Of a stretch of 32,000 nt of DNA, positions 251-29,222 are shown piece by piece (position 1 is the first letter of the stretch; every line of letters starts with the position of its first letter). The position numbers and the translations under genes were made by a program. The notes below the pieces were generated by a model. The model saw only the letters and a program-made list of their open reading frames with translations, was not told the DNA's origin and made no database searches. The DNA is from Candidatus Electrothrix sp. GW3-4 (GTDB lineage: Bacteria; Desulfobacterota; Desulfobulbia; Desulfobulbales; Desulfobulbaceae), in NCBI RefSeq assembly GCF_037902255.1, contig NZ_CP147990.1, positions 3,900,001 through 3,932,000 on the forward strand. The letters run 5' to 3'.

Positions 251-595
251 ATGCTCCGTTCTGTATTGAATGAGGGTATTGACCGCCTTGGGTCGCTCGA
301 ACTTGTTGTGCTCGTCCGGCTGGAACCAAGCGGCTGGAAGATTTGTTCAGCGTTACTATCTGTTCATAAACTGTATCTTGTTTTTTTGCGAAGGATTTCT
401 GCATGAATTTTGGGGGATATCCTTTGTTGTGGGATAGCACAGATCGCTGGCATTCATTGCTTGAATTTTCTAAGGACATGCGATAGATAAAGAGTTTTAG
501 CTATCGTTTCAACCAGTTTTCCCTCTCGTTCGGAGCCTTATCGCAGAGACATTTGATACGTTTTGCCTGTAACTTCCGAGAAAAGCAATGCTTTT

Positions 596-1125
596 TGTTT
601 GCAAATAAAAGGTTGTTTGTTATCAAGAGAAGGTTATTAGTAACAAACAAGGAGTTGTTTGTAGCTAACAGAAGGTTGTTTGTAATAAATAAGGAGTTGT
701 TTGTAGCTAACAGAAGGTTGTTGATAACCAACGAAGGAGTGTTTGTTAACAAGAGAAGGTTGTTTGTAACAAACAAGGAGCTGTTTGCTATAAACAGAAG
801 GTGTTTGATAACCAACGAAGGAGTGTTTGCTCCTAGCAAAAGATTGTTTGCTACCAACAAAAGGTTGTTGTTAATCAACGAAGGAGTGTTTGCTATCAAC
901 GGAAGGTGTTTGATAACCAACGAAGGAGTGTTTGCTATCAACGAAAGGTGTTTGATAACCAACGAGGGAATGTTTGCTCATGACAGAAGGTTGTCAGCTA
1001 TTAACAAAAGGTTCTTGGTAGCCAACAAGGGGTTGTTTACTCCTGATAGAAAGCTCTCAGCTATCAAGAAGAATATTTTGTTTAACAGCAAGAATCTATT
1101 GTTTGTCCGTAAAGGTGTGTTACTG
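596..1125. repeat. Degenerate tandem array of about 25 units of 21 bp (alternating 20/22 in places), organised as about 12 copies of a 42-bp higher-order unit. Consensus TGTTTG-yTAnC-AAC-rAAGG(AG)T.
   Basis: TGTTTG-like anchors occur at 614, 635, 656, 677, 698, 719, 740, 761, 782, 802, 824, 845, 866, 887, 907, 929, 949, 971, 992, 1013, 1034 and 1055. Near-identical 42-mers lie at 782-823, 887-928 and 929-970 (TGTTTGCTATCAACGGAAGGTGTTTGATAACCAACGAAGGAG). Units alternate ...AAGGT and ...AAGGAG endings. Many units are imperfect palindromes, for example TTGTTTGTAACAAACAA at 760-776. Confidence 0.9.
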
Positions 1126-1208
1126 AGTAAACACTAGCATAAAAAAACTCCGCTCACTAACAATATTGCACAGAAAAACAATATATTACCAAAGGGGCTT
1201 CGATTTAA

Positions 1209-3302
1209 ATGAATAAGTCTGGTTCAGGGTCAGCAACAAATGCAGGGATAGATTACCAGCAAAGAGTCTCTGCATTATTTCTAATAGCTTTACATTCTCA
1301 GTTCGACATCTCACAATTACTTAACATTAATGACGAATTAAATATTAAGTATGTTTCATACGAGACTGCAGAAAATGTAGATGATCTCAATATTATTTGC
1401 GATGACAACAAAATTTTATACATGCAAATTAAGCGCAAAATTGCGCTTTCCAAAAAAGACGGCTCTGAATTCCAAAAAGTAATTGAACAGTTTCTTTCTC
1501 AATATATCGCTGAACAAAAAATATCTGATCGGTTTCTTCTCATCACTACGTCAGACACATCAAAAAGTATTAAATATGATCTCAAAAAAATTTTTGACAG
1601 TATTAGGCTTAACGATACTGGATTTAAAGCGAACCCTTGCAATAATAACGAAGAAAAAACTTATTCAATCTTAGAAACAGTTTTTAATAACTCATATAAA
1701 AAACTGACCCAACATGAACCATCAAATAAAGATTTTGTTATATTTTGCAAGCAAGTATTCGTGTCTATTATTGATGTAGAAACCGATATGACAACAGAGA
1801 AAATAGCTGTCATGCTTTTGCACAGTGAAGGAATTAATATGCCATCACTGGTTTGGAACTACTTAGTATCCCAGAGTCTATATTATGCAACTAACAGATT
1901 ATCTTTAAACCGTGATGGTATAAATAACACTCTAGCAAAATATCAAGCCAAAAAGCCTACTCAGAAAGAATTGGAAATTCAATTAAATGAACTTTTGAAA
2001 CCGGTAATACTTAATGTTTCAGAGCTTGCAACAGGAAAGGATGTTTTCATAGTAGAGTCTTTTGTCGAAGGTCTTGATTACGCCATAGTTGAACTATTTA
2101 GATTCGATAGTAATGGAGAGAAAAGAGTAAAATTTGAGGACGACTATGTGCTATTAGGGGATAAAAAAGCAAAAGTTATTCGTCGTTTTTCCACAATGGT
2201 CGGCCTTCAAAGATATATGGAAGAAAACCAAGAATATTATAAAAATAAGAAAGTAGTAGTCCTTGAGTCGAGAGATATTGATACTGTTGAAGAAACCGAA
2301 GTGGCAAGAAAATATAAAGAATATTGCCATGAGCTACTCAACAAAAATACCACCCTTATCAATTGCATTCACTCTGGCAAAAGTTGCTTGTCAGCTTCAT
2401 GTTATTTCGTTGAAGTTGACTACCCAAACTATCCTCCTGCAATTGGCATGGTTCGAGAGGAATGCTTGTTGCCACTTGATCGAATTCTCGGTAAGCCAAT
2501 AATTCCGCAAGAAGATATTCGGTTCCCAACCGAAATAAACATATCGAGATGGATGAGTCTTCTCAATAAAGGTCAAGGGTTATTAAAATCATTACCTGAA
2601 GTCAAGAAAGATTTGAAATGTAAAGTGTTACAAGTGGGCTGGAATGAAGATAATCAAGTGTATGCTGAATACAACTATTGCATAAGAAAAAACTTGGAGG
2701 ATGGGAGTTCAGACTATCTCTGTTCCAGAGGAAAAATTCAACGTTTTTCTAAATATGAAGCCGATATTCAGGCAGATTGCCTTAACTCTGATATCTTAAA
2801 GAATAAAAACAATGATAATCGGCTTTGTGTGTCCTCGAAAAACAGGAGGGTTATATCTCGTCCTTTTTTAATGAAAATCAAAGAAAACGGTGAGGAAGTT
2901 CTGGAAGTCAGATCCTTTGAAGTCTGCAAGTATAGTCAACTGTTGGGAGATCTATATAATAATTGCGATAATTATTATGCCCCTCTCTGTTTTGTCATAC
3001 ACAAAGATACTGAACAAATATTTGTAATCGGCGATATAGTCCCTCTTATTTCAAACCCTTTCCAACTATATTTATTCATTGAAAATTGGGGGGAAGCAGG
3101 TTTCATATTTGATGACCATTCATTGTCTGTTATCCATAATGACTATGAATTTGATAAACATATGAGAGATATTATCAATGACAGCCTATTTCCAATAATT
3201 GATCCAAAGTTTACGTCTCAACAGGAATTGGAAGAAGGCATTGTTATTAGAGAAATAAATAAATTTATCGAAGAACAAAAAAATGCACAACCAGATGCTT
3301 AA
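1209..3302 (+). CDS. 697-aa protein with an N-terminal Cap4/DUF4297-like PD-(D/E)xK nuclease-type domain and a large unassigned C-terminal region; candidate defence effector or toxin
   Basis: This is a long uninterrupted ORF in very AT-rich DNA, where random ORFs should be short. The N-terminus reads GSATNAGIDYQQRVSALFLI...YETAENVDDLNIICDDNKILYMQIKRK. That gives a G-x-x-YQ opening followed by an E...DD...QxK arrangement, which is typical of Cap4-type dsDNA nuclease domains as I remember them. A Cys/His cluster follows: CHELLNKNTTLINCIHSGKSCLSASC. Residues ~240-697 have no motif I recognise. The function is an inference. Confidence 0.8.
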   Translation: MNKSGSGSATNAGIDYQQRVSALFLIALHSQFDISQLLNINDELNIKYVSYETAENVDDLNIICDDNKILYMQIKRKIALSKKDGSEFQKVIEQFLSQYIAEQKISDRFLLITTSDTSKSIKYDLKKIFDSIRLNDTGFKANPCNNNEEKTYSILETVFNNSYKKLTQHEPSNKDFVIFCKQVFVSIIDVETDMTTEKIAVMLLHSEGINMPSLVWNYLVSQSLYYATNRLSLNRDGINNTLAKYQAKKPTQKELEIQLNELLKPVILNVSELATGKDVFIVESFVEGLDYAIVELFRFDSNGEKRVKFEDDYVLLGDKKAKVIRRFSTMVGLQRYMEENQEYYKNKKVVVLESRDIDTVEETEVARKYKEYCHELLNKNTTLINCIHSGKSCLSASCYFVEVDYPNYPPAIGMVREECLLPLDRILGKPIIPQEDIRFPTEINISRWMSLLNKGQGLLKSLPEVKKDLKCKVLQVGWNEDNQVYAEYNYCIRKNLEDGSSDYLCSRGKIQRFSKYEADIQADCLNSDILKNKNNDNRLCVSSKNRRVISRPFLMKIKENGEEVLEVRSFEVCKYSQLLGDLYNNCDNYYAPLCFVIHKDTEQIFVIGDIVPLISNPFQLYLFIENWGEAGFIFDDHSLSVIHNDYEFDKHMRDIINDSLFPIIDPKFTSQQELEEGIVIREINKFIEEQKNAQPDA

Positions 3303-3495
3303 CTTGACTACAACCAATCCTTGGTTGCGCTGATGCGATCAGTTATGGCGGTGCAGCAGGTTAGCCACTCATGAATAAGTACCAATATTCGGTATGGTAA
3401 CAACATATGCAGAACAAGTCAATTCAGGCGACGACAAGAAAGCACTGATGCAGGTCGTTAGATATCGACAACCCCTCAAACAACGGAGCATTACA

Positions 3496-3936
3496 ATGGA
3501 CGACTACGAAAAATGGGAACAAGATTGCAAAAAGATCAAAAAAACGAACAAAGGCCTATTAAACGAATTTGAGGCATGGCTCAAAGCTTCCGGTCTCTCG
3601 GAAAAAACGATAAAGAAGCATCTTGAAAACGTTGACTTTTACCTCAATGAATATCTGCTGTACGAGGATGCAATTGAAGCAAAAGACGGTGCTGGCGATG
3701 TCGGTATGTTTCTGGGTTATTGGTTTATAAAAAAGGCAATGTGGGCAAGCAAATCAAGCATCAAGAGCAACGCAACAAGCCTGAAAAAGTTTTACACCTT
3801 TATGCATGAGAAAGGTTTGATAAAGAAAGAAGAACTGACAGATCTCAAACAAAGGATAAAAGAAGAGATGCCGGAATGGTTGGCAACCTTGGCCCGCTAT
3901 GATGACCCCTCAGTTGAAGATGTTTGGTTCGAGTAG
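3496..3936 (+). CDS. Stand-alone phage-integrase N-terminal SAM-like (core-binding) domain protein with no catalytic domain
   Basis: FEAWLKASGLSEKTIKKHLENVDFYLNEYL ... IKSNATSLKKFYTFMHEKGLI matches the two-helix-pair pattern of tyrosine-recombinase core-binding domains (GLSxxTIxxHLxxVxxF ... LKxFYxFxxxxGLI). I prefer the start at ATG 3496 because GGAG lies 7 nt upstream. The ORF track starts at 3394, which has no SD. No R..HxxR..Y catalytic domain follows. Confidence 0.6.
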   Translation: MDDYEKWEQDCKKIKKTNKGLLNEFEAWLKASGLSEKTIKKHLENVDFYLNEYLLYEDAIEAKDGAGDVGMFLGYWFIKKAMWASKSSIKSNATSLKKFYTFMHEKGLIKKEELTDLKQRIKEEMPEWLATLARYDDPSVEDVWFE

Positions 3937-4004
3937 AACTCATCAACAAGATCTGGACGAAACGCCTGTCCTGTTATCAACACCTTGTACAAAGTAGAAA
4001 AGAA

Positions 4005-4487
4005 ATGCCATACTCATTTTTTCATAGTCGTTTTCCTAAAGTTGCAGAGCGAGAAACCAGGTCAGTCACCGTGTATGATCCTTCAGAGTTTAATCTCCCA
4101 CCAGCAGATTATGCCTTTCTCGAAATGTTCTGTGACGAACCCGATTGTGACTGTCGTCGGGTATTTTTCACTGTAATATCTTCTCGTGAAGATGACGTTA
4201 AGGCGGTTATTTCCTGGGGGTGGGAAGACCAAGTTTTTTATACGAAGTGGATAAAGGATAGCGATCCTGATGTTATCAAGGAACTGATGGGCCCAATACT
4301 GAATATAATGAGTCCACAATCGGCCCAGGCCCCAGCTCTTCTCAAGCTCTTCCAAGAGGTATTACTCCCAGACACGGCCTATATCGAAAGAATAAAACGA
4401 CACTATGTCATGTTTCGTCAAACAGTTGACAAGAAGAGCAAAAAAAAGTTCCGCAGAAGGAAAGGGAAGATAAAAAGGATAAAATAA
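4005..4487 (+). CDS. Hypothetical protein with a CDEPDCDCRRV Cys motif and a poly-basic C-terminal tail
   Basis: The ORF is open from TTG 3924, which overlaps the previous gene. The first ATG is at 4005 (MPYSFFHSRFPKV...). The motif is YAFLEMFCDEPDCDCRRVFFTV, and the tail is KKSKKKFRRRKGKIKRIK. I recognise no family. The start is uncertain (3924 or 4005). Confidence 0.55.
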   Translation: MPYSFFHSRFPKVAERETRSVTVYDPSEFNLPPADYAFLEMFCDEPDCDCRRVFFTVISSREDDVKAVISWGWEDQVFYTKWIKDSDPDVIKELMGPILNIMSPQSAQAPALLKLFQEVLLPDTAYIERIKRHYVMFRQTVDKKSKKKFRRRKGKIKRIK

Positions 4488-4536
4488 GCAGTCACTTCAG
4501 CAGACAGGAAAAACGTTTACCCGGCAAAAAATCCCC

Positions 4537-4983
4537 ATGACTCCCCCATCATTTTCCGATCTCACCCTGGAGGACCTCCTCCCCCAACGCGGCGATATGC
4601 TGCTGATCCAGGAGGTCCTCGAAGTAGACAGAAGCGAAGCCCGTACCCTGTGCCGCCCCAAGCCTTCCTGGCCTATGGCCGATGCAAAGGGCGTCCCTCC
4701 CCTCATCCTGGTCGAGCTAGCTGCTCAGACCGCCGGGGTGTGCAACGGTTGGGACCGAATCCAGAGCAAAGGAAAAGACTCAGACCCGATGGGCTGGATC
4801 GTCGGGATCAAAAAAGCAGAGTTTTCCATTGACCATCTCCCCTTTGCCTGCGATATTATCAGCTGGGCAAAAAACACCTTCTGCTTTGACAATCTCCGGG
4901 AAGTGGCGTGCGAACAGCACATCGACGGCCAATTGATCAGCAGGATGACACTTCAGCTCTTTCAGGCAAAAACAGATGAGTAA
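4537..4983 (+). CDS. Hotdog-fold 3-hydroxyacyl-ACP dehydratase-like protein (FabA/FabZ-related, of the type found in aryl-polyene-like lipid clusters)
   Basis: LLPQRGDMLLIQEVLEVD...PPLILVELAAQTAGV is the typical LLPHRxPMLLxDxV...E.xAQ pattern of hotdog dehydratases. It overlaps the next gene by 8 nt (ATGAGTAA). Confidence 0.7.
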   Translation: MTPPSFSDLTLEDLLPQRGDMLLIQEVLEVDRSEARTLCRPKPSWPMADAKGVPPLILVELAAQTAGVCNGWDRIQSKGKDSDPMGWIVGIKKAEFSIDHLPFACDIISWAKNTFCFDNLREVACEQHIDGQLISRMTLQLFQAKTDE

Positions 4984-5719
4984 CGAACAGGCAAAAGAAC
5001 AGGAAACCGCCATCGTGACTGGCGGCAGCAAGGGAATCGGCAGGGCCATCTGCCTAGAACTGGCCCAAAACGGCTACTACGTTGTTATCAATTATATGGG
5101 CGATAAGAACGGGGCCGAGCAGACCCTGGTCCAGGTTGAAGAACAGGGCGGCCAGGGAGAAATCTGCCAATTCGATATCCGGGACCGGGAAAAGGTCGAA
5201 CAGATCATTGAGGATATCGCCCAACGACGGGGCAGCATTGATGTCCTGGTCAATAATGCAGGCATTATTGCCGACGGCCTTTTCATGATGATGAAGCCAG
5301 AAAACTGGGACGCTGTCCTTGATACCAGCCTGAACGGATTTTATAATATGACCCGTCCGGTCCTGGAAAAGATGGTGCGCAAACGCAAAGGCGCCATCAT
5401 CTCCATCTCCTCAGCCAGTTCCCTGGTGCCCAACAGGGGCCAAGCCAATTATGCCGCTGCCAAGGCAGGCTTGAACGCGGCCAGCAGAACCGTAGCCACC
5501 GAGGTAGCCCGCCTGGGTATTCGGGTCAATGTGGTTGCCCCAGGCCTCATTGAAACGGATATGATCCAGGAGGTGCCTAAGGACCATATCAAGACCATGA
5601 TCCCTATGGCCCGGATCGGCAGACCAGAGGAAGTTGCCCAGGTCGTCAGTTTTCTCTGCTCAGATGCGGCTTCCTATGTGACCGGTCAGGTCATCTCGGT
5701 CAACGGAGGCATGATCTAG
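4976..5719 (+). CDS. fabG: 3-oxoacyl-ACP reductase (SDR family, FabG-like)
   Basis: It has TGGSKGIGRAI (TGxxxGIG), NNAG, a Ser...YAAAKAG catalytic triad context and the PGLIETDM motif. Length is 247 aa. Confidence 0.9.
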   Translation: MSNEQAKEQETAIVTGGSKGIGRAICLELAQNGYYVVINYMGDKNGAEQTLVQVEEQGGQGEICQFDIRDREKVEQIIEDIAQRRGSIDVLVNNAGIIADGLFMMMKPENWDAVLDTSLNGFYNMTRPVLEKMVRKRKGAIISISSASSLVPNRGQANYAAAKAGLNAASRTVATEVARLGIRVNVVAPGLIETDMIQEVPKDHIKTMIPMARIGRPEEVAQVVSFLCSDAASYVTGQVISVNGGMI

Positions 5720-6345
5720 TGCTACGCATCTTCCTTTTTCTCTGTCTTTTCTGTCTTAGCGGCTCTGCTATCTCTGCCGTATCGCCCTTTCTTTCCTCTG
5801 GGATTGCAGCCACCGCCCCCTCAGAAGCAGGAGACTTCCGGATTGAGTCTATCCAGGCGGATTTCACCCAGGAAAAGCACCTGAAAATGCTGACCAAGCC
5901 CATTATCTCGACTGGCAAACTGCTCTTCCAGGCCCCTGCTTCTCTACGTTGGGAGTACACCAGCCCCTTTGCCTCTATTCTGCTCATGCACGAGGGCAAG
6001 GTCAAACGCTTCATCGAGCGTGATGGTGTTTTTCAGGAAGAAACAGGTATGCAGCTTGATGCAATGCAGGTGGTCTTGACCGAGATCAGCAGCTGGCTTG
6101 ATGGCCGTTTTACCGACAATGAGCTCTTCGCCGTCTCCTTTCCTGACGACAAGACCGTTGAGCTGACCCCAAAAGAACAGGCCTTTGCCCATCTGATCAA
6201 ACGAATTGAGTTGAAGCTCTCTGGGCAGAAGGGCTTGCTGGATCAGGTGACTATTACCGAAGGACCAGGGGCAAGCACGATTATGCGCTTCAGCAACAGG
6301 GTGCTGAATCAGGCAATCCCAGCCACCTCATTCACGCAAAGATGA
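5719..6345 (+). CDS. LolA-like outer-membrane lipoprotein carrier family protein
   Basis: A signal peptide (MLRIFLFLCLFCLSGSAISA) is followed by FTQEKHLKMLTKPIISTGKLLFQAPASLRWEY, the LolA-family signature region. The GTG start overlaps the fabG stop by 1 nt. Confidence 0.7.
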   Translation: MLRIFLFLCLFCLSGSAISAVSPFLSSGIAATAPSEAGDFRIESIQADFTQEKHLKMLTKPIISTGKLLFQAPASLRWEYTSPFASILLMHEGKVKRFIERDGVFQEETGMQLDAMQVVLTEISSWLDGRFTDNELFAVSFPDDKTVELTPKEQAFAHLIKRIELKLSGQKGLLDQVTITEGPGASTIMRFSNRVLNQAIPATSFTQR

Positions 6346-7049
6346 CACGAGTTCCCTTTCTTCTCCTCCCTGTACTTATACTCCTTGCCTGCTCCTTCTC
6401 CCTCACTGCCTGCGGGGGCAAGCAGACACTCCCTCTCCTCACCAAGGCCGACTCGCTCTCCGAAGAACCCGCTTCCTGCACCTCAATCTTTCCCCAGGGT
6501 GCATGGCAGTTTGTCCACTCCATTGATTTCACTTTGAAGCACGGTGGTGGCTCCACCGTCATCGGGGTAACCTCCTTAGGCCCTGATAGCCTGGAATGTG
6601 CCCTCGTCACCCCAGAAGGCTTCACCTTGTTTTCAGGCACCTTGGATCGGGAAAATAATTTTGCAGTCACACGGGCAGTTTCCCCGTTTGATAACCCGTC
6701 CTTTGCTCTGGGCCTGCTGGAAGACCTGCAAGCCATCTTCCGCAAACCTGTTGGGGAACTACAGCAAGGGTCTCTCAGCGAGCCCCCTGCCCCGGTCTGT
6801 CGATACACCACAAACGATGAAAAGGTGACCGATATCTTGTCGGATAAAAACGCTGAAACCTGCTGGCAGGTCCGCAATTACGCGCCTGATAAAGAGCTTA
6901 TACGCGCTATCGCCGCTCGATCCTGCCAGGCAGCAGGCCCAGGATCGGGTTCGGCCTCCATCCCGCAACAACTGGAACTCCAGACCTCTGGGCCAACCGG
7001 TTATACCTTAAAGATGAAGCTCATCTCTGCTGAACATCTACCGAACTAA
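6342..7049 (+). CDS. Putative lipoprotein, possibly of the DUF3261-like type that accompanies LolA-like genes in lipid clusters
   Basis: It has a lipobox LTAC-GG after a hydrophobic leader (MTRVPFLLLPVLILLACSFSLTACGG). An ATGA overlap links it to the upstream gene. The family assignment is from memory only. Confidence 0.6.
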   Translation: MTRVPFLLLPVLILLACSFSLTACGGKQTLPLLTKADSLSEEPASCTSIFPQGAWQFVHSIDFTLKHGGGSTVIGVTSLGPDSLECALVTPEGFTLFSGTLDRENNFAVTRAVSPFDNPSFALGLLEDLQAIFRKPVGELQQGSLSEPPAPVCRYTTNDEKVTDILSDKNAETCWQVRNYAPDKELIRAIAARSCQAAGPGSGSASIPQQLELQTSGPTGYTLKMKLISAEHLPN

Positions 7050-7164
7050 AGGCAAGGAAAACGCCTCAGCGTTTGCTCGCCCCCTTCCAACCTCCCCTGA
7101 GATCTCAACGAAAGTTCTCATACTGGTCCCTCTCTTTCTCCAACAGAGTTTCTTTGCCACCTGC

Positions 7165-7193
7165 TTGACTTCACCATTTAATTTGATAATAAT
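7165..7193 (+). promoter_or_regulatory. Candidate sigma70-type promoter for the 131-aa gene
   Basis: TTGACT at 7165-7170 is followed 14-17 nt later by the AT-rich GATAATAATAAT block (7185-7196), which offers several -10 registers. Confidence 0.35.
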
Positions 7194-7236
7194 AATTACA
7201 ACAAGTCAAAATAGAGAACAAACAGGGAGGTGTCCC

Positions 7237-7632
7237 ATGTTAAACCTTGCAGAACTGCGAAAAAACAGGATATTGGTCAACAGCATTGACTGGGCCATGA
7301 CTCCAGAAAAGGCAGTGGAAATGTATCTGGAATGGGGAACTGGCTGGATTCGGGGGAATGATTTCGTCTCAAGCTCCGATGACGAGAGCTATTATTTCGT
7401 CATCTATGACTGGGAGACAGAGCCACCGCAGGTTACCCTGGTCCATCGCACCCTTGGCGGTGCGGAAGAGTTGGCAAAAATTGAAGTCCCCAAAGAACTC
7501 TTTGACGCTGCCTGCCAAGAAGACGGGAGACGCCCTGGTGGGACGGTCCATCGCCTGAACAGAGGCCTTCAGGAATGGTTAAACACCCGCCTTAAGGGGC
7601 CCCCTATTGAGTTTTTCAACATAGAACAGTAA
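7237..7632 (+). CDS. Hypothetical cytoplasmic protein (131 aa)
   Basis: A strong SD (GGGAGG, 7225-7230) lies 6 nt upstream of ATG 7237, and a clean terminator lies downstream. I recognise no motif (MLNLAELRKNRILVNSIDWAMTPEKAVEMYLEWGTGW...). The ORF-track start at 7165 is unlikely. Confidence 0.6.
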   Translation: MLNLAELRKNRILVNSIDWAMTPEKAVEMYLEWGTGWIRGNDFVSSSDDESYYFVIYDWETEPPQVTLVHRTLGGAEELAKIEVPKELFDAACQEDGRRPGGTVHRLNRGLQEWLNTRLKGPPIEFFNIEQ

Positions 7633-7668
7633 AGATGAGGGGGCTGCCCACAGCCCTCATCTTCTTTT
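7632..7668. terminator. Rho-independent terminator between convergent genes
   Basis: AGATGAGGGGGCTG-CCCA-CAGCCCTCATCT stem-loop followed by TCTTTTG; A-rich on the other side. Confidence 0.65.
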
Positions 7669-7698
7669 GCTCAGCATATCTCTCACAATATATGTATG

Positions 7699-10122
7699 TT
7701 ACTCTATCTTATTACATTGCGACAAACATTGACTCATACATTTTTCAGGTCGGTCTGTACATTTATTTCCACAGTATTCTTGACAACATACCCGTTTATC
7801 AAGACCGCTTGTCAGCGGATCTCTCAATTGCAGCACGTTAGTGGCTCTGGTAATTGTTGCAGCACAAATATTCAGCTGCCCCTGCCCTTTTCCAGAACGA
7901 AACTCGGAACCGGAAACAGTAACTGTTTCCCCAACTTCAAAATGAAAGACTTCTCGACATTGCTTGATCAAATTCTCGGGAAATACATGGATAACATAGG
8001 AGCCCGATGAGGTCTCTACGTCAAGATGTAATCCGCTCTGCTTGGTCCAAGGTGGAGATTTTATTGCAACCTTCCTGATCTGCCCGCTAATCTCCGTTAG
8101 GGGCGTCTTCCATGGTTGATTGCATGAGGATTCGCGTACTGATTCACTTATTGATTCACTTATTGGTTGAACCTGAACGGCTCCCTGGCCTTCCCCGGCA
8201 TCTGAAGGCTGAACCTTTTCTTCACCATCTTCTGCTGAAGAAGGAGCGACCGGAAGAGAAGTTTCGACCTCTTCCGTTTCCTCAGCCTGAGACGCAAGCG
8301 GACTCATCTCATCTGAGGAAACATTTTTTTCAAGTGGTGGTGTGACCTCTGCTGTTGTGACCTTATCCCCCTTTTCGATCACTGCGGGCTGATCTGCCTC
8401 AGGAATGGCAGGCAGGGAAGGAGCGCCCTCCTTCTCTTCACTGGTCTGCATCTCCGCTTGAGCAACAGCCTCACCAGCAGGCAGCTTTTCCCCTGCTTCT
8501 GCTTCAGATACACTGGCGTTTTCCCCGTTCCCAGTTGTTAGAGATTCAGGTTGGAACTTCTGCCCAGTAACCTCAGATGCGGGGATGGAAGGTACGACAG
8601 GAGCAGGGTCTTTCTCCGCACGGCCCTGTATCTCTGGTTGAGATGTCTCATAAGATGCCGTAACACTCTCTCCATCCCCTGTCGATTCTGTCGATTGGGG
8701 CTCATCCTGAACCTCTTGCTCCTTCTTCTCGACGACAGCTCTGGAGGTCGTGGCAGGAGCCATCGCTTTTGTTTCACTCCGCTGAGGAGTAGCTTGCTCA
8801 GTTTTGCTGACAGCAACCTTCTTCTTGGCCTTGAGCACTCTTATCTCATGAAGAGCCGAATTCTCATGACCAGATTCTTCAGGTTCCTCAGGAAGGGGCA
8901 GAATTTTCTCGTCAACCTCCCTCACTGGGGGAGAAACGACAGAGGCAGGGACAGCTCCTCCTGTTTCTACGCTATGACGTCCCAATGCTTCATCAATATC
9001 ATCAGCAAGGAGGTCTCCTTCTTTTTCTTCCTGCTCAGACGATACATATCTGAAATCAAGGTCTGTCAACTGCCGGGAATAACGCAGGCGGGCCAATACC
9101 CTGCCCTGCCGATCATACAGGCTCAGAATATCACCGCTGATGGTATATCTTCGCGTCGTATCCAAGGCCTGCAAGAAGGCATCCTCCACCTCCATCCCAA
9201 CAGGGCAGGCCATACGGGTTGATGCAATCCGACTGAAGACAAAATCATTATCAGCAAAAAGCCAGCTTCCGCTAAAATTATTACAGCCTGCAAAGCCCTG
9301 AATCAGCTGTTCACCACCTTGGACCTTCAAAAAAGGTGGTTTGCTCACACTCTCCGGCTCCAGCGACTCTCCACCTATCTCTGTCAAATACCACCTATTA
9401 TTTAAAATCGTTGCAATACGGCGCCCTTTCCCCTTACAGAAATGGTATGGATCAATATGAACGGAACGAACCGCAATCAGACGATCTCCCCGACCTGCTT
9501 GAGAGGAAAGGCGAATATCCAGAGTTACAAAAAGCGATTCTGCCCGACCATGCAAGATATCTTGATACGCCTGCTCTACCTCGGCAGCTCTCCCCCTGGT
9601 GACGAGAGGGAACCTCGCCCCACTCAGGCATTCCCGAAAGACCCCACGACCGCGTTTGCGGGTGTACATCCCCTGCATACGCACTATCCCCTCATAGCGG
9701 GGCTCTGTATGCGTCAAGGTAAAGTCATAGCGAACAAGGGAGGGCATCATTCCGCCGGAGACCTTGATAAGCTTCAGGGTTTGCTGCCCTGTAACCGCCA
9801 AGATCCGGCTCGCCTTGTCATAACTGGTCAAACGAAGAAGTTTCTTTGCTTCGCTATATCTCCATACGCCGATCTCTGCCTGAGTCACCTTACGACCAGA
9901 TGCATTTCTTGCCATCCTTTCCATCTGCAAAAAATACATACCATCGGGCCGCAGCACCAACTCAAACGATGTCGAAGGACATCGCTTCAGGTCGAGATCA
10001 GCCCGAAAGACAGCAGGAAGAGGATGAACGAACGTTCTGTCCTTCAGAACATGCTTTTGTTGCGGAGCACATCCTGCCAGCAACAGGACCAAGAGAGAAA
10101 AAAGGCGGAGATATGTACGCAT
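7699..10122 (-). CDS. Large composite lipoprotein: NlpE-N-like region, META (HslJ-like) domain, ~285-aa acidic low-complexity linker, C-terminal OB-like domain and a Cys-rich tail
   Basis: The lipobox is LLLAGC (MRTYLRLFSLLVLLLAGCAPQQ). The META-type segment reads NNRWYLTEIGG...FLKVQGGEQLIQGFAGCNNFSGSW...TRMACP...EDAFLQALDTTRRYTISGDILSLYD. An E/P/S/T/A-rich stretch covers residues ~355-640. The C-terminus has GLHLDVETSSGSYVIHVFPE...VGETVTVSGSEF and ends in CCQEYCGNKCTDRPEKCMSQCLSQC. Confidence 0.8.
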   Translation of the reverse strand: MRTYLRLFSLLVLLLAGCAPQQKHVLKDRTFVHPLPAVFRADLDLKRCPSTSFELVLRPDGMYFLQMERMARNASGRKVTQAEIGVWRYSEAKKLLRLTSYDKASRILAVTGQQTLKLIKVSGGMMPSLVRYDFTLTHTEPRYEGIVRMQGMYTRKRGRGVFRECLSGARFPLVTRGRAAEVEQAYQDILHGRAESLFVTLDIRLSSQAGRGDRLIAVRSVHIDPYHFCKGKGRRIATILNNRWYLTEIGGESLEPESVSKPPFLKVQGGEQLIQGFAGCNNFSGSWLFADNDFVFSRIASTRMACPVGMEVEDAFLQALDTTRRYTISGDILSLYDRQGRVLARLRYSRQLTDLDFRYVSSEQEEKEGDLLADDIDEALGRHSVETGGAVPASVVSPPVREVDEKILPLPEEPEESGHENSALHEIRVLKAKKKVAVSKTEQATPQRSETKAMAPATTSRAVVEKKEQEVQDEPQSTESTGDGESVTASYETSQPEIQGRAEKDPAPVVPSIPASEVTGQKFQPESLTTGNGENASVSEAEAGEKLPAGEAVAQAEMQTSEEKEGAPSLPAIPEADQPAVIEKGDKVTTAEVTPPLEKNVSSDEMSPLASQAEETEEVETSLPVAPSSAEDGEEKVQPSDAGEGQGAVQVQPISESISESVRESSCNQPWKTPLTEISGQIRKVAIKSPPWTKQSGLHLDVETSSGSYVIHVFPENLIKQCREVFHFEVGETVTVSGSEFRSGKGQGQLNICAATITRATNVLQLRDPLTSGLDKRVCCQEYCGNKCTDRPEKCMSQCLSQCNKIE

Positions 10123-17552: not shown

Positions 17553-18215
17553 TCAGCTGCCAGAAGATTCGGTGACTTTGCCGTTAACAGCAGCATTACC
17601 GCTGACCACCCATTTCCAGCCCCGTTCGACAAGGGGACCTTCCGAGTAATCAACGATCTGTGGATTTATCCAAATCTGAGCAGAAAAACGGTCTTCCTGA
17701 GAACCCTGGACAAAGGGATAAGGATATTGTCCCGCCTGGAGATCAATAATACGGAGAATAAAACTGTTCTCTAAAGGATCAGCACCTTGTTTCTCTTGCT
17801 GAGCAACCTCTTTATTGGCCCCGTAATAATCAACCCAGGTTTTGCCCTGATGCATTTCCCAAGAGAAACCCCGCAGGCCAGCGGGCAGGAAATCACCGAC
17901 AAAGGGAGGAAGAGATTCCGTTTGCAGCTCAGAAATCTCTGGCCAATTCCCCAGAGATTCATAGGTCCAGGTAATACTGTCCACCGCTCCCAGAAGAGAT
18001 CGATACAAAACCGGGGCCTGATTCTTCAGACGGATATCTTGCATTTGATAGGATTTTTTGGCGACAACCTCGTCTTTTGGGGCAACCTGACCATAGCGCA
18101 AGCCTGCAAGCAGGAAGATACAACAGATAACAACGGTAAGCCCCAAAACCTCACGCCCCGCAGCAAGCGGGGCAACAATTACTTCTTTACACTCTTGTGT
18201 AGCAGTATTACTCAT
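17553..18215 (-). CDS. Hypothetical membrane-anchored protein, first gene of the metal-uptake operon
   Basis: GGAAGGAGAGGTGG lies just upstream of the ATG at 18215-18213 (MSNTATQECKE...). There is one predicted TM segment (VLGLTVVICCIFLLAGL). Fifty nt separate it from the binding-protein gene. The ORF-track start at 18251 lacks an SD. Confidence 0.6.
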   Translation of the reverse strand: MSNTATQECKEVIVAPLAAGREVLGLTVVICCIFLLAGLRYGQVAPKDEVVAKKSYQMQDIRLKNQAPVLYRSLLGAVDSITWTYESLGNWPEISELQTESLPPFVGDFLPAGLRGFSWEMHQGKTWVDYYGANKEVAQQEKQGADPLENSFILRIIDLQAGQYPYPFVQGSQEDRFSAQIWINPQIVDYSEGPLVERGWKWVVSGNAAVNGKVTESSGS

Positions 18216-18437
18216 TAATTTCCACCTCTCCTTCCTGTAGCCTGCAAACATACCGCTTTTATGCGAACCCGAGGGTCGTGTCCCACAATGAAGGGTATTA
18301 TTTTTTCTAGATACGTAACACTGTTTCTAAACAGACGCAATATTTTTTTAACCTTAGGTGAGAAAAAAATACCCGCATCTCAGAATATCTGATTCTACCC
18401 TGCTGCCGATCTACAACTTTTCCGCTTAAAATCAAGA

Positions 18438-23141: not shown

Positions 23142-23540
23142 CTACTTGTGGGCAACCGGATAACTGTTGGTGAGCCACTCGGTCCATCCCCCAGTGAGCG
23201 CATAGACGTGCGTAAATCCCTTTTCCATAAGTCGACGGACCAATCTACCGCTGGTGCCCAGCCCTTCGCAAGCACAGTAAAGGACCATTGGGGTATTTTT
23301 ATGAAAATTTTCTGCCCAAATGTCAAGCTTATCGCCTGGCAGGCGGATTGCCCCAGGAATCTTATTATCACTGGCAGTCCAATGAGGCTCACTGCGGACA
23401 TCTAAGATCGTGTACTCATACGAACCAAGCTTGGATCTCAGCTCTTCTTTACTTATGGTTTGAATATTAGCGGCAAGTGCCTGGCTTACCCCACCTACCC
23501 CCAGTAAAACGGCAACGACGAGCAGCAGAACGTTTTTCAT
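23142..23540 (-). CDS. Exported single-domain rhodanese-like sulfurtransferase (Cys form)
   Basis: A signal peptide (MKNVLLLVVAVLLGVGGVSQALA) precedes a rhodanese domain: ILDVRSEPHW...IPGAIRLP...MVLYCACEGLGTSGRLVRRLMEKGFTHVYALTGGWTEW. AAAGGAG lies upstream of the ATG. Confidence 0.85.
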   Translation of the reverse strand: MKNVLLLVVAVLLGVGGVSQALAANIQTISKEELRSKLGSYEYTILDVRSEPHWTASDNKIPGAIRLPGDKLDIWAENFHKNTPMVLYCACEGLGTSGRLVRRLMEKGFTHVYALTGGWTEWLTNSYPVAHK

Positions 23541-23649: not shown

Positions 23650-24045
23650 TTACTTCTTTTCCACCGGAAAATCCTCGGCTCTCCACTTTCGCCATCCGCC
23701 TTCAAGCACATAAACATCGGTAAAACTCTTTGCTACGAACCTGCGTGCCAAACTGGCACTGCTTCTTTCATTCGGTCATGAGCAATAGAGGACCAAGGTC
23801 GTGTCCTTTGGCAAAGAACCCGACCAATCATCAAAATTATCCCATGTGAGCCGTAGAGCGCCGGGGATCTTCACCTCGCTGTTGCTCCACCCTCTTTCAG
23901 ATCGCGCATCCAGGATAGTAATGTTCTCGGCATTGAGATTTTGCTTCAACTCTTCAGCGCTCATGAATTGGACGCCATCAGCGGCCAATAATGAGGTCGC
24001 GCTGAGAAGAAAACAGGCAAAGATGAGCCCAAGTATGTTATTCAT
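23650..24045 (-). CDS. Exported rhodanese-like protein with an in-frame TGA (23776-23778) proposed to encode selenocysteine; 131 codons including Sec
   Basis: AAGGAG lies 6 nt upstream of the ATG at 24045-24043. The signal peptide is MNNILGLIFACFLLSATSLLA. The ORF-track ORF stops at ...TTLVLYCS-TGA, but the same frame continues as PNERSSASLARRFVAKSFTDVYVLEGGWRKWRAEDFPVEKK-TAA. This completes the rhodanese fold and aligns without gaps to the neighbouring paralog, with YCSU opposite YCAC. Confidence 0.7.
23743..23762 (-). promoter_or_regulatory. Candidate bacterial SECIS hairpin
   Basis: On the mRNA strand the hairpin starts 13 nt after UGA. It reads GC-A-GUGCCA-GUU-UGGCAC-GC, which is 8 bp with a bulged A and a G/U-containing apical loop. 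Confidence 0.5.
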
Positions 24046-24384
24046 ATATATCTCCTTTTTTACAGTAGCATTCTTTACAGTAGCACTTACCTCCGTTTTC
24101 ATCAAAAGTTCTTTCTTGTTATAACGAAAGCTCAGCACACAAAAAAAGACATACTGTGATCTCAGGGGGAATATGTGTTCACCCTGAACCCGCTAACACT
24201 GTACAGTTTCTTGCATCCTGTGTACAGTTTTTTTTACATTATAATTTCAATTAATCGAACGAACTCAGAACAGAAGAGCTGCAGACGGCACCAGAAAACA
24301 GGCCCTGGGTTATTATAGCGCCAATAATGGCAAAAAGAAGGATGAAAGAGAAGAGGAAGCACGCGAAGAGAAAGGAGACAATAA

Positions 24385-24450: not shown

Positions 24451-24537
24451 TGGTGCCGAAGGGGAGAGTCGAACTCCCACGAGCGTACGCCCACTAGACC
24501 CTGAACCTAGCGCGTCTACCAATTCCGCCACTTCGGC
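24451..24537 (-). tRNA. tRNA-Leu (anticodon CAG), type II with a long variable arm, CCA encoded
   Basis: The reverse complement is GCCGAAGTGGCGGAATTGGTAGACGCGCTAGGTTCAGGGTCTAGTGGGCGTACGCTCGTGGGAGTTCGACTCTCCCCTTCGGCACCA. The acceptor stem is GCCGAAG/CTTCGGC. The anticodon stem is CTAGG/TCTAG with loop TTCAGGG. The variable arm is 15 nt. The T-arm is GGGAG-TTCGACT-CTCCC. Confidence 0.93.
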
Positions 24538-27447: not shown

Positions 27448-28083
27448 ATGTCAGAAGAACAAACCCAAGTCTCCATAGAAACCGTGCTCGGTGAGCTGGA
27501 GAAAATATGCAAAGAAAACCCGGACAATATCATTGCTCATCATAAACTCGGCCTGATCTATCGCCAGGCAGGACGCATTGATGATGCCATCTGTGAGCTG
27601 AAAAAGGCCATTGAGCTGGATGACCACTCCGTGGAAAGCTACATCAATCTCGGTGCCATCTATTTTGATAAAGGTGATGTTGCCCAGGCCCTGGAGCTGA
27701 ACGAAAAGGCCCTGAAAATCACCCCCAAGATGGCCGAGGCCCATGTCAATATCGGCCTGATCCGCCAGCAGGAGGGTAAGCCTGAGGAGGCCCTGGAATG
27801 CTATGAAAGGGCCATCCAGATTGACCCCAACCTCCTGACCCCCTGGCTCAATATGACTTCCGTCTGCACCATGCTGGAGCAGGATGAAAAGGCCGTGGAA
27901 TCTGCCCGTCAGGCCGTGACCCTGGAGCCGGATAACGGTATGGCCCGCAATAACCTGGCCGTGGCCCTGTATTTCTCCGGTGCCTATGAGGAAGCCAAGC
28001 GGAACATGGACAAGGCCAAGGAACTGGGCTACGCCGTTGATCCGCGTTTTGTGCAAGGACTGGAAGAGAAGTTGGCAGCATAA
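27448..28083 (+). CDS. Tetratricopeptide (TPR) repeat protein
   Basis: There are five to six 34-aa repeats with the W/L-G-Y-A-F-A-P pattern (HHKLGLIYRQAGRIDDAICELKKAIELDD; YINLGAIYFDKGDVAQALELNEKALKITP; etc.). Confidence 0.85.
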   Translation: MSEEQTQVSIETVLGELEKICKENPDNIIAHHKLGLIYRQAGRIDDAICELKKAIELDDHSVESYINLGAIYFDKGDVAQALELNEKALKITPKMAEAHVNIGLIRQQEGKPEEALECYERAIQIDPNLLTPWLNMTSVCTMLEQDEKAVESARQAVTLEPDNGMARNNLAVALYFSGAYEEAKRNMDKAKELGYAVDPRFVQGLEEKLAA

Positions 28084-29222
28084 TGGCAGCAAAAAAACAA
28101 GCAAACAGCAAACCTTGGTGCCCATTCTGCGGCATGGAGGTGGGGCGTCCGGTGGAGGCCCCGCAACGCAAGATGACCGAGTTTCCGGTGGGCCGATGCG
28201 AGTGCGGTGCCGTCTATGCCTGTGATGCCACTGGCCATAATGTCGGATCCGCCATGGTGGAATGTTTGGTCTATGCCTGCGGCGAGGAATGGGATCTGGC
28301 CTGGGAACTGATCCCTGAGGACGATTATCTCACCGGGCGGGTGGAAGATTATGACGACGTCACCCACCAGATCTGTCCCAAGAGGAACCTGGACGGTCGC
28401 GGGGTGCGCGGGGTGCTCTATTTTGTCCGCCTCCATAAGGATGTGGCAGAGATTGCTGATCGTTTTGCCCAGAAAAAGGAACAGGAGGCTCAAGCTGCCT
28501 TGGCAGGAAGCGAAAAAGGTTCTCAGGGCCCGGTGACCCCTGAGGTGGAACCGGCCCGTGATCCCAAACGGAAGAAAAAACGGGCCTCCAAGATGATCGT
28601 CAAGAAGCTGGTTGAGGCCCATGATATTGACGGGCTGCTGGATCTCTGTTTTGACGATAGACGGACCCTGCGTTTTATGCAGCGCCTCCTCTATGAGCCC
28701 GATCCGGCGAAACGCTATAAGACCGCCTGGCTGATCGGGCAGGTTTCCGCCCGCCTCTCCACCCGCGAACCAGCCCCGGTGGCCGATATGCTGCACCGAC
28801 TCTTTGAGGCCTGCTCGGATTCCGCCTCCATGCCCTGGGGCATGGTGGAGGCCATTGGCGCAATCATCTCTGCCCGGACAGATATCTACGGGGCCTTTAC
28901 CCGGCACCTACTTAACTTCATGGGTGATGAAGGGACCCAAGAGGCCGCCCTCTGGGGTCTGAGCGAGATTGCTGCCACCCGCCCCGACCTGATCCGCAGC
29001 ACCCCGTTTTACTCCACCTTTCATTTCCTGGAGCATGAAAACCCGGTGGTACGTGGCCTGATGGTCCGTCTGCTGGGCCGCATCAAGGCCAAGGAGGCCT
29101 TGCTCCAGCTTATGGGATTGCAAAAAGATGCAACAGAAATAACCCTCTATAAGCAGGGTGAGCCGATCAAAACCACCGTGGCCGCCCTGGTGAAGGAAGC
29201 AGCGGCTGGGATGCAGGGATAG
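28083..29222 (+). CDS. Zinc-ribbon plus HEAT-like repeat protein, translationally coupled to the TPR gene
   Basis: The N-terminus is WCPFCGMEVGRP...GRCECGAVYAC (CxxC...CxC). The C-terminal helical repeats (PWGMVEAIGAIIS..., EAALWGLSEIAATRP..., NPVVRGLMVRLLGRIKAKEA) are HEAT/PBS-lyase-like. The start overlaps the TPR stop (TAATG). Confidence 0.75.
   Translation: MAAKKQANSKPWCPFCGMEVGRPVEAPQRKMTEFPVGRCECGAVYACDATGHNVGSAMVECLVYACGEEWDLAWELIPEDDYLTGRVEDYDDVTHQICPKRNLDGRGVRGVLYFVRLHKDVAEIADRFAQKKEQEAQAALAGSEKGSQGPVTPEVEPARDPKRKKKRASKMIVKKLVEAHDIDGLLDLCFDDRRTLRFMQRLLYEPDPAKRYKTAWLIGQVSARLSTREPAPVADMLHRLFEACSDSASMPWGMVEAIGAIISARTDIYGAFTRHLLNFMGDEGTQEAALWGLSEIAATRPDLIRSTPFYSTFHFLEHENPVVRGLMVRLLGRIKAKEALLQLMGLQKDATEITLYKQGEPIKTTVAALVKEAAAGMQG

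Follow-up and report, generated by a model that had tools for sequence, protein, structure and literature searches.

Among rhodanese-like selenoproteins, the form with a Cys-x-selenocysteine (CxU) motif was reportedly first predicted by Zhang and Gladyshev in 2005 with bSECISearch. It is now listed with the NCBIfam family NF041203 and credited to Zhang and Gladyshev 2005 (PMC13188914), and it stands as "COG0607 form 2 (CxU)" among the predicted families of a 2022 review (PMC9312934). Rhodanese-type selenoproteins are also abundant in the Deltaproteobacteria that are symbionts of Olavius (PMC1976440). Members of NF041203 share an LYC-[AS]-U motif, a single domain of ~130 residues and an N-terminal signal-like segment. 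Here we describe a gene of this family in Candidatus Electrothrix sp. GW3-4, in a stretch of 32,000 nucleotides (nt) that we refer to as the window (assembly GCF_037902255.1, contig NZ_CP147990.1, positions 3,900,001 to 3,932,000). We believe, with a probability of roughly 90%, that positions 23650-24045 on the minus strand encode a 131-residue exported single-domain rhodanese whose UGA codon 90 is decoded as selenocysteine (Sec, U). A preliminary description of the locus had proposed a Sec-containing rhodanese and stated that related selenoproteins had been reported in earlier surveys; the first two sources cited above do list the CxU form.

The single-domain rhodaneses GlpE and PspE of Escherichia coli (PF00581) have the same fold, with a Cys after the central beta-strand. 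Compared with them, the Electrothrix protein has a second redox-active residue (Sec, or a Cys in its paralog, described below) two positions past the probable catalytic Cys, and it is predicted to be exported. A Sec-bearing rhodanese domain is also found in TsoB (NF045694), a rhodanese/DsbD fusion-like selenoprotein with a UxxxxU motif. We considered the Sec-rhodanese of the window as a candidate TsoB and rejected it, with 24 bits against a cut-off of 805 and a different motif and architecture.

The Sec-rhodanese gene and its paralog lie on the minus strand. The start codon ATG (24045-24043) stands 6 nt downstream of a Shine-Dalgarno-like AGGAG at 24052..24056, assigned by reading the sequence, and opens 89 sense codons that end in ...KDTTLVLYCS. 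Codon 90, which we read as Sec, is the UGA at 23776..23778, in the motif LYC-S-U. The same frame then continues for 41 sense codons, encoding PNERSSASLARRFVAKSFTDVYVLEGGWRKWRAEDFPVEKK, up to a TAA at 23652-23650. The coding sequence at 23650..24045 comprises 131 codons plus the TAA, and its product is MNNILGLIFACFLLSATSLLAADGVQFMSAEELKQNLNAENITILDARSERGWSNSEVKIPGALRLTWDNFDDWSGSLPKDTTLVLYCS-U-PNERSSASLARRFVAKSFTDVYVLEGGWRKWRAEDFPVEKK. The coordinates of the TGA (23778-23776), of the 41 codons and of the TAA were correct in the preliminary description. Its claim that the continuation supplies the C-terminal third of a rhodanese domain also holds, as the read-through product fills Pfam Rhodanese (PF00581) at positions 1-102 of 102 (58.2 bits) and NF041203 at positions 6-126 of 126. 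Against NF041203, a query with C in place of U scores 151.5 bits, where NCBI's curated equivalog cut-off is 115 bits. Having 41 open codons after a stop is not rare by itself, and the significance of this frame comes from homology and conservation. The window holds 32 TGA-joined frame pairs of comparable length, which we scanned for further selenoprotein genes; the other 31 are low-complexity and non-protein-like by eye, leaving only the Sec-rhodanese pair.

NF041203 carries the name "rhodanese_LYCAU, rhodanese-related (seleno)protein", and its LYC-x-U/C motif is present in the window as LVLYCS-TGA-PNE. The Sec-rhodanese belongs to this family, which represents rhodanese-like selenoproteins in their CxU form. 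Following it by 109 nt is a Cys-containing paralog of 132 amino acids (aa) at 23142..23540, with the motif LYCACEGLGTS, which scores 135.6 bits against NF041203. NCBI gives the name "rhodanese-related (seleno)protein" to one Cys paralog (P0040). The two proteins share 46% identity over 112 residues, and the gapless alignment between them that had been reported earlier is correct, with Cys91 of the paralog opposite the TGA. This tandem of Sec gene and Cys paralog is kept in 8/8 orthologous loci. Compared with NF041203 at large, the Electrothrix clade has Ser rather than Ala between Cys and Sec and PNERSS rather than PNEATS after Sec, and its Sec form is always trailed by a Cys-Cys paralog of the same family.

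The loci that we compared are these 8 orthologous ones, fetched by exact protein, and 52 from GTDB species representatives. In 8/8 exact-protein loci, the TGA is found at the same codon, followed by ~41 conserved in-frame codons and a stop at the same place, with the exception of the 3' end of locus L007. That locus (L007 530-680) departs from the other orthologs past ...GGWRQWRS, and its end lies 6 codons beyond theirs, which points to a frameshift or an assembly error. Among the GTDB loci, 38 of the best 39 of the 52 have TGA at the Sec column, and these 38 follow the pattern LYC-[AS]-TGA-P-[NSH]-E-[AG]-[TS]-S-A. We built a gapless alignment, A2, of 44 distinct sequences, namely the window and 43 relatives. 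The TGA is invariant in it (44/44), and each of the 43 relatives has a conserved frame after the TGA. The TGA-bearing relatives include the cable bacteria Electrothrix marina, laxa, aarhusensis and gigas as well as Desulfocapsa, Desulfobulbaceae, Desulforhopalus, Desulfosarcina, Desulfuromonas, Pseudodesulfovibrio and Syntrophaceae, and also one metagenome-assembled genome (MAG) from the Chloroflexota (Sphaerobacteraceae).

DNA identity between the window and the syntenic Electrothrix loci is 80-82%, which places the window in a cable bacterium that is a relative of the species compared and not one of them. Across ten Electrothrix orthologs, the 41 codons that follow the TGA have a ratio of nonsynonymous to synonymous substitution rates (dN/dS) of 0.13, compared with 0.21 for the mature portion that precedes it. 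The preliminary description had allowed that homologs might consistently end at the TGA with no conserved frame beyond, or that the codons downstream might be free of purifying selection. We found neither: the 8/8 exact-protein loci and 38/39 of the closest GTDB loci read on, and a dN/dS of 0.13 indicates purifying selection. The Sec/Cys alternation that it had suggested looking for at this column does occur, with Cys in the adjacent paralog, in locus L045 and in protein P0065. P0065 (221 aa, from a JGI metagenome) is a Cys form, VVLYCACPNESTSARVA, with the motif LYCACPNESTS, fused to an N-terminal hydrophobic segment (membrane-anchored); no other Cys form among the relatives examined is closer to the CAUPNEATSA motif. 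Another protein, P0023 (127 aa), was called as a gene in a read-level assembly; it departs from the frame beyond residue 68 and is an artefact.

A bacterial selenocysteine insertion sequence (SECIS) is described as a stem-loop just past the UGA with a G in its small apical loop (PMC1088965). The hairpin GUGCC-AGUUU-GGCAC at 23745..23759 (minus strand), which starts 17 nt after the UGA, has this form and is a putative bacterial SECIS. In folds, it belongs to a wider region (23728..23775, minus strand) that comprises, besides the hairpin, a spacer of 16 nt and what may be a lower stem; the latter (AUGAA/UUCGU-type pairing) appears in folds of the Electrothrix clade only. Across the 44 sequences of A2, a six-pair helix is paired in 98.9% of 264 cells, and three hairpin pairs show compensatory double changes (U-A to C-G, C-G to A-U, and A-U to C-G). 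Shifting the 3' partners by 1-3 columns lowers hairpin pairing to 20-52%, and RNAalifold independently predicts the same helix. The first base of the loop, G, is invariant in A2 and the next is U in 39/44; counted from the U of UGA, they are G26 and U27. Third-codon identity is 0.91 inside the hairpin versus 0.53 outside, which indicates that an RNA structure is selected on top of the protein. No conserved hairpin is found at the equivalent place in the Cys paralogs, which use TGC or TGT. The SECIS-like element is therefore a conserved and covarying hairpin without a counterpart in the Cys paralogs, as would be expected if the proposal of a Sec codon is right.

Within NF041203, the hairpin is common to 37 other family loci. 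The SECIS of E. coli fdhF is likewise a hairpin directly past the UGA within the coding sequence, with a small apical loop that exposes G-U, and many members of the rhodanese family carry the loop GGUCU, identical to the fdhF loop sequence. The two elements differ in that the GGUC bases of the fdhF loop are G23/U24, whereas the loop G-U of the Sec-rhodanese lies at +26/+27, one codon further, and in that the upper stem of the Sec-rhodanese has 5-6 pairs with no bulged U visible, unlike fdhF. Since UGA is the ordinary stop for 4/19 confident genes in the window, and also serves as the terminal stop of the Sec-rhodanese gene itself in the L006 ortholog, decoding of UGA as Sec must be context-dependent. 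The hairpin would provide that context: it lies 17 nt past the UGA, exposes G-U in a small apical loop and, in the expected role of a bacterial SECIS, would recruit SelB·GTP·Sec-tRNA(Sec) to the ribosome, where Sec would be inserted instead of termination.

For the fold, we modelled the Cys paralog in place of the Sec protein. The AlphaFold model has a mean predicted local distance difference test score (pLDDT) of 87.4, and its best Foldseek matches are rhodaneses, including 6mxv, 3tp9 and 1gmx (GlpE). It shows a central strand at 85-88 that ends at Tyr88, a loop from Cys89 to Leu94 and a helix from 95. Judged by this model, the Sec protein has a rhodanese fold. In hhalign, Cys88 of the Sec protein falls on the catalytic Cys65 of GlpE, with a two-residue insertion needed in the active-site region. 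This alignment and the strand, loop and helix borders in the paralog model make Cys88 the probable, though not certain, canonical catalytic nucleophile, with Sec90 at loop position +2. In the gapless phmmer alignment to 6mxv, it is Sec that falls on the catalytic Cys. The Cys88/Sec90 pair in the active-site loop (LYC-S-U-PNERS) could form a selenenylsulfide-capable centre or carry sulfane sulfur.

The N-terminus of the Sec-rhodanese is a predicted Sec-type signal peptide, MNNILGLIFACFLLSATSLLA/AD (the slash marks the cleavage site), at 23980..24045 on the minus strand, with a hydrophobic core and an A-x-A-like site. Reading the orthologs by eye, we find the hydrophobic segment with its LLA/AD end kept in them, and the equivalent segment in the paralog model is a low-confidence helix. 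Both observations are consistent with a cleaved signal peptide, and export to the periplasm is predicted. Periplasmic rhodaneses have been predicted for all cable bacteria (PMC13047784). Together, the Sec-rhodanese and its Cys-Cys paralog might handle sulfur in the form of persulfide, polysulfide or thiosulfate, in the periplasm of a cable bacterium that oxidises sulfide.

The Sud protein of Wolinella succinogenes passes polysulfide sulfur to the periplasmic Psr reductase. Like the Sec-rhodanese, this periplasmic polysulfide-sulfur transferase (PDB 1qxn) is a small periplasmic single-domain rhodanese of ~130 residues, but it has a single Cys and is without Sec. Profile similarity between the two is marginal and not significant (E = 0.044, 16.8 bits), and as a hypothesis from analogy we propose Sud as the nearest functional analogue. 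Cable bacteria encode periplasmic Psr/PhsABC (PMC13047784). A bolder idea, which we consider doubtful, is that the periplasmic rhodanese pair of marine cable bacteria is a Sec/Cys tandem, with the selenoprotein as the reactive partner: a Sud-type carrier whose Cys-x-Sec centre would take up polysulfide or persulfide sulfur and pass it on, either to Psr/PhsABC in the periplasm or to the electron sink of the conductive fibres. If this were true, electrogenic sulfur oxidation in Electrothrix would depend on selenium.

Decoding of UGA as Sec needs its own machinery, and in PMC1273633 the Sec-decoding trait has SelB and SelC as its signatures. ARAGORN finds a tRNA-Sec (anticodon UCA) in a MAG of Ca. 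Electrothrix marina, at L009 12969-13066, ~6 kb from the ortholog of the Sec-rhodanese. It scores 74.8 bits against Rfam RF01852, for which the gathering score is 47. Electrothrix is, on this sequence match, predicted to decode Sec. The tRNA-Sec gene is flanked by a gene for a UvrD-like helicase and by a two-component/Hpt cluster, with no sel gene adjoining.

Several observations weigh against our interpretation. This tRNA-Sec comes from a congener and not from the window's own genome; the 32-kb window has none, and an Rfam scan of it gives tRNA-Leu(CAG) only. When the window and ~0.9 Mb of fetched loci, all of them local neighbourhoods, were searched by tblastn for counterparts of SelA (partial), SelB and SelD of E. 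coli, the matches were unrelated GTPases only. In Rfam, the hairpin region has no match even with E relaxed to 10, a null result that means little should Rfam lack a bacterial SECIS model. The selenoprotein status of the CxU family is itself described as predicted in the reviews (PMC13188914, PMC9312934). As described above, the alignments disagree on whether Cys88 (hhalign, paralog model) or Sec90 (phmmer) is the catalytic residue, so that Cys88 is probable and not certain. The Electrothrix gene neighbourhood gives no functional clue, as the neighbours are housekeeping or unknown genes (a YciC/UPF0259-like membrane protein, a DUF167-type protein, YggT, ribF and a tRNA-Leu). Finally, in one Electrothrix lineage (GCA_052785185.1 and GCA_052785085.1) the Sec-type gene is a C-terminal remnant, ...RSRLARKFIKNGFSKVYVLEGGWRKWRADDFPVEKK, that has lost its N-terminal part and the UGA, so the Sec protein is dispensable at least there. 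The remnant loci are L065 9700-10000, L066 900-1175 and L067 800-1073, and their Cys paralog is intact.

Gene callers and GenBank records stop the protein at 89 residues, and the degraded gene of that one lineage is real. Both would agree with a pseudogene or a sequencing or assembly error, that is, a nonsense mutation in a former Cys-rhodanese whose downstream frame is a decaying relic. We find this hardly credible, given that the same codon is TGA in 43 further sequences from many genera and assemblies, that frame and length are maintained over the 41 downstream codons at a dN/dS below that of the upstream part, and that no ortholog has a frameshift or extra stop besides the 3' end of L007. 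It is highly improbable as well that the UGA is a true stop, leaving a functional 89-residue fragment, and that the downstream part is conserved for an RNA or regulatory reason or as a separate small peptide. A TTG-initiated open reading frame (ORF) of 33 codons at 23650-23751 could encode such a peptide, and a terminator-like scan also picks up the hairpin, though on the opposite strand. The fragment, however, would break off inside the active-site loop and lack the next helix as well as the final strand and helix of the rhodanese fold. What is conserved downstream is the amino-acid sequence, read in the upstream gene's frame (dN/dS 0.13) and matching the C-terminal third of rhodanese profiles, and a separate peptide would have no conserved start codon or ribosome-binding site.

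The UGA might also be read through with no selenium in the mature protein, either without Sec machinery, by a near-cognate tRNA that inserts Trp or Cys, or with Cys loaded on tRNA-Sec as sulfide out-competes selenide at SelD. Cys insertion at UGA driven by thiophosphate is known for the mammalian machinery. In the sulfidic sediments where cable bacteria live such insertion is conceivable, and selenium incorporation in the CxU rhodanese family is predicted only. We nevertheless judge this explanation very unlikely. The covarying hairpin, its invariant loop G and the fixed distance to the UGA are hallmarks of SelB-dependent decoding, and a tRNA-Sec is present in the genus. The TGA, and not TGC or TGT, is kept across phyla while the paralogs use Cys codons, which implies that selection acts for something that a Cys codon does not offer. 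Decoding of the UGA as Sec is the explanation that we prefer.

If so, existing annotation misses much of the protein. A protein search returned ~22 close homologs with 65-100% identity, nearly all of which are exactly 89 residues long and all of which end in ...YCS. All of the Electrothrix Sec-form copies among the returned matches have 89 residues (among them GenBank entries for E. laxa, GM3_4, AR1 and Desulfobulbus sp. US5), and the expectation that automated annotation cuts such proteins is borne out by these records. The gene is almost certainly a real selenoprotein gene, a new and systematically mis-annotated one in a known family. A literature search found no paper combining Electrothrix with selenocysteine, and "cable bacteria" with selenocysteine gave nothing relevant. 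A 2026 survey of the sulfur genes of cable bacteria reports the periplasmic rhodanese (pRho) in all cable-bacteria genomes, expressed above the cytoplasmic rhodaneses, and leaves selenium unmentioned (PMC13047784). The presence of the CxU selenoprotein family in cable bacteria thus appears to be unrecorded.

Half of a conserved exported-rhodanese tandem is effectively missing from the gene catalogues of cable bacteria. A selenoprotein among the candidates for periplasmic sulfur trafficking matters for the selenium supply of enrichments and for proteome searches that allow U. The peptides C-terminal to the UGA include FVAK/SFTDVYVLEGGWR, and the peptide that spans the UGA is LVLYCSUPNER. For selenoprotein biology the gain is incremental, as the family, the CxU motif and the SECIS type are already catalogued; what the locus contributes is a clade with good support and, inside one genome, a clean pair of Sec and Cys paralogs to compare. 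To selenoprotein research its interest is moderate to low; it matters somewhat more to those who annotate or culture cable bacteria.

A second Sec-type member is found in Electrothrix, VIYCA-TGA-NSEGSSASLARTLIEEKGF..., with the same GUGCCAGUUUGGCAC hairpin and in an unrelated context beside argS. It occurs at L038 10001-10336 (Ca. E. laxa chromosome 127182-147517) and in two other Electrothrix MAGs, at L024 3444-3848 and L030 234-638. Given the copy in L038, the Sec-type LYCAU rhodaneses of E. laxa number at least two, beside one Cys paralog.

In 12 loci from outside Electrothrix, a conserved gene for a membrane protein of ~418 residues precedes the Sec-rhodanese gene, co-directional and 30-250 nt apart. 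These loci (L016, L019, L022, L023, L026, L028, L029, L032, L033, L036, L040 and L047; e.g. L023 8691-9947) belong to Desulfocapsa, Desulfobulbaceae, Desulfosarcina, Desulfobacterales and unclassified MAGs. Pfam gives no match for the membrane protein, which shows faint similarity to APC-type antiporters only; it may be a functional partner of the Sec-rhodanese. Genes for glucokinase, VTT/DedA and pyridine-nucleotide-disulfide oxidoreductase proteins often come after in the same loci.

In the window, the tRNA-Leu(CAG) gene (24451-24537, minus strand) lies between ribF and the Sec-rhodanese gene. In locus L004, an island of ~9 kb (351-9184) with integrase, AlpA, Toprim, DUF3987 and CoiA-like genes is found between the tRNA-Leu and the rhodanese gene, and in L065 MqsR-toxin and MmeI restriction-modification genes stand between ribF and the remnant. 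The island and the insertion together suggest that the tRNA-Leu/rhodanese site is an integration hotspot. Elsewhere in the window, Pfam returns nothing at E <= 1e-5 for three long ORFs, at 1209-3302 (plus strand, 697 residues), 17553-18251 (minus strand, 232 residues) and 28083-29222 (plus strand, 379 residues). The 232-residue ORF may be the gene annotated as DUF6162 in L002, to judge by how long it is and by its place beside the ZnuA gene.

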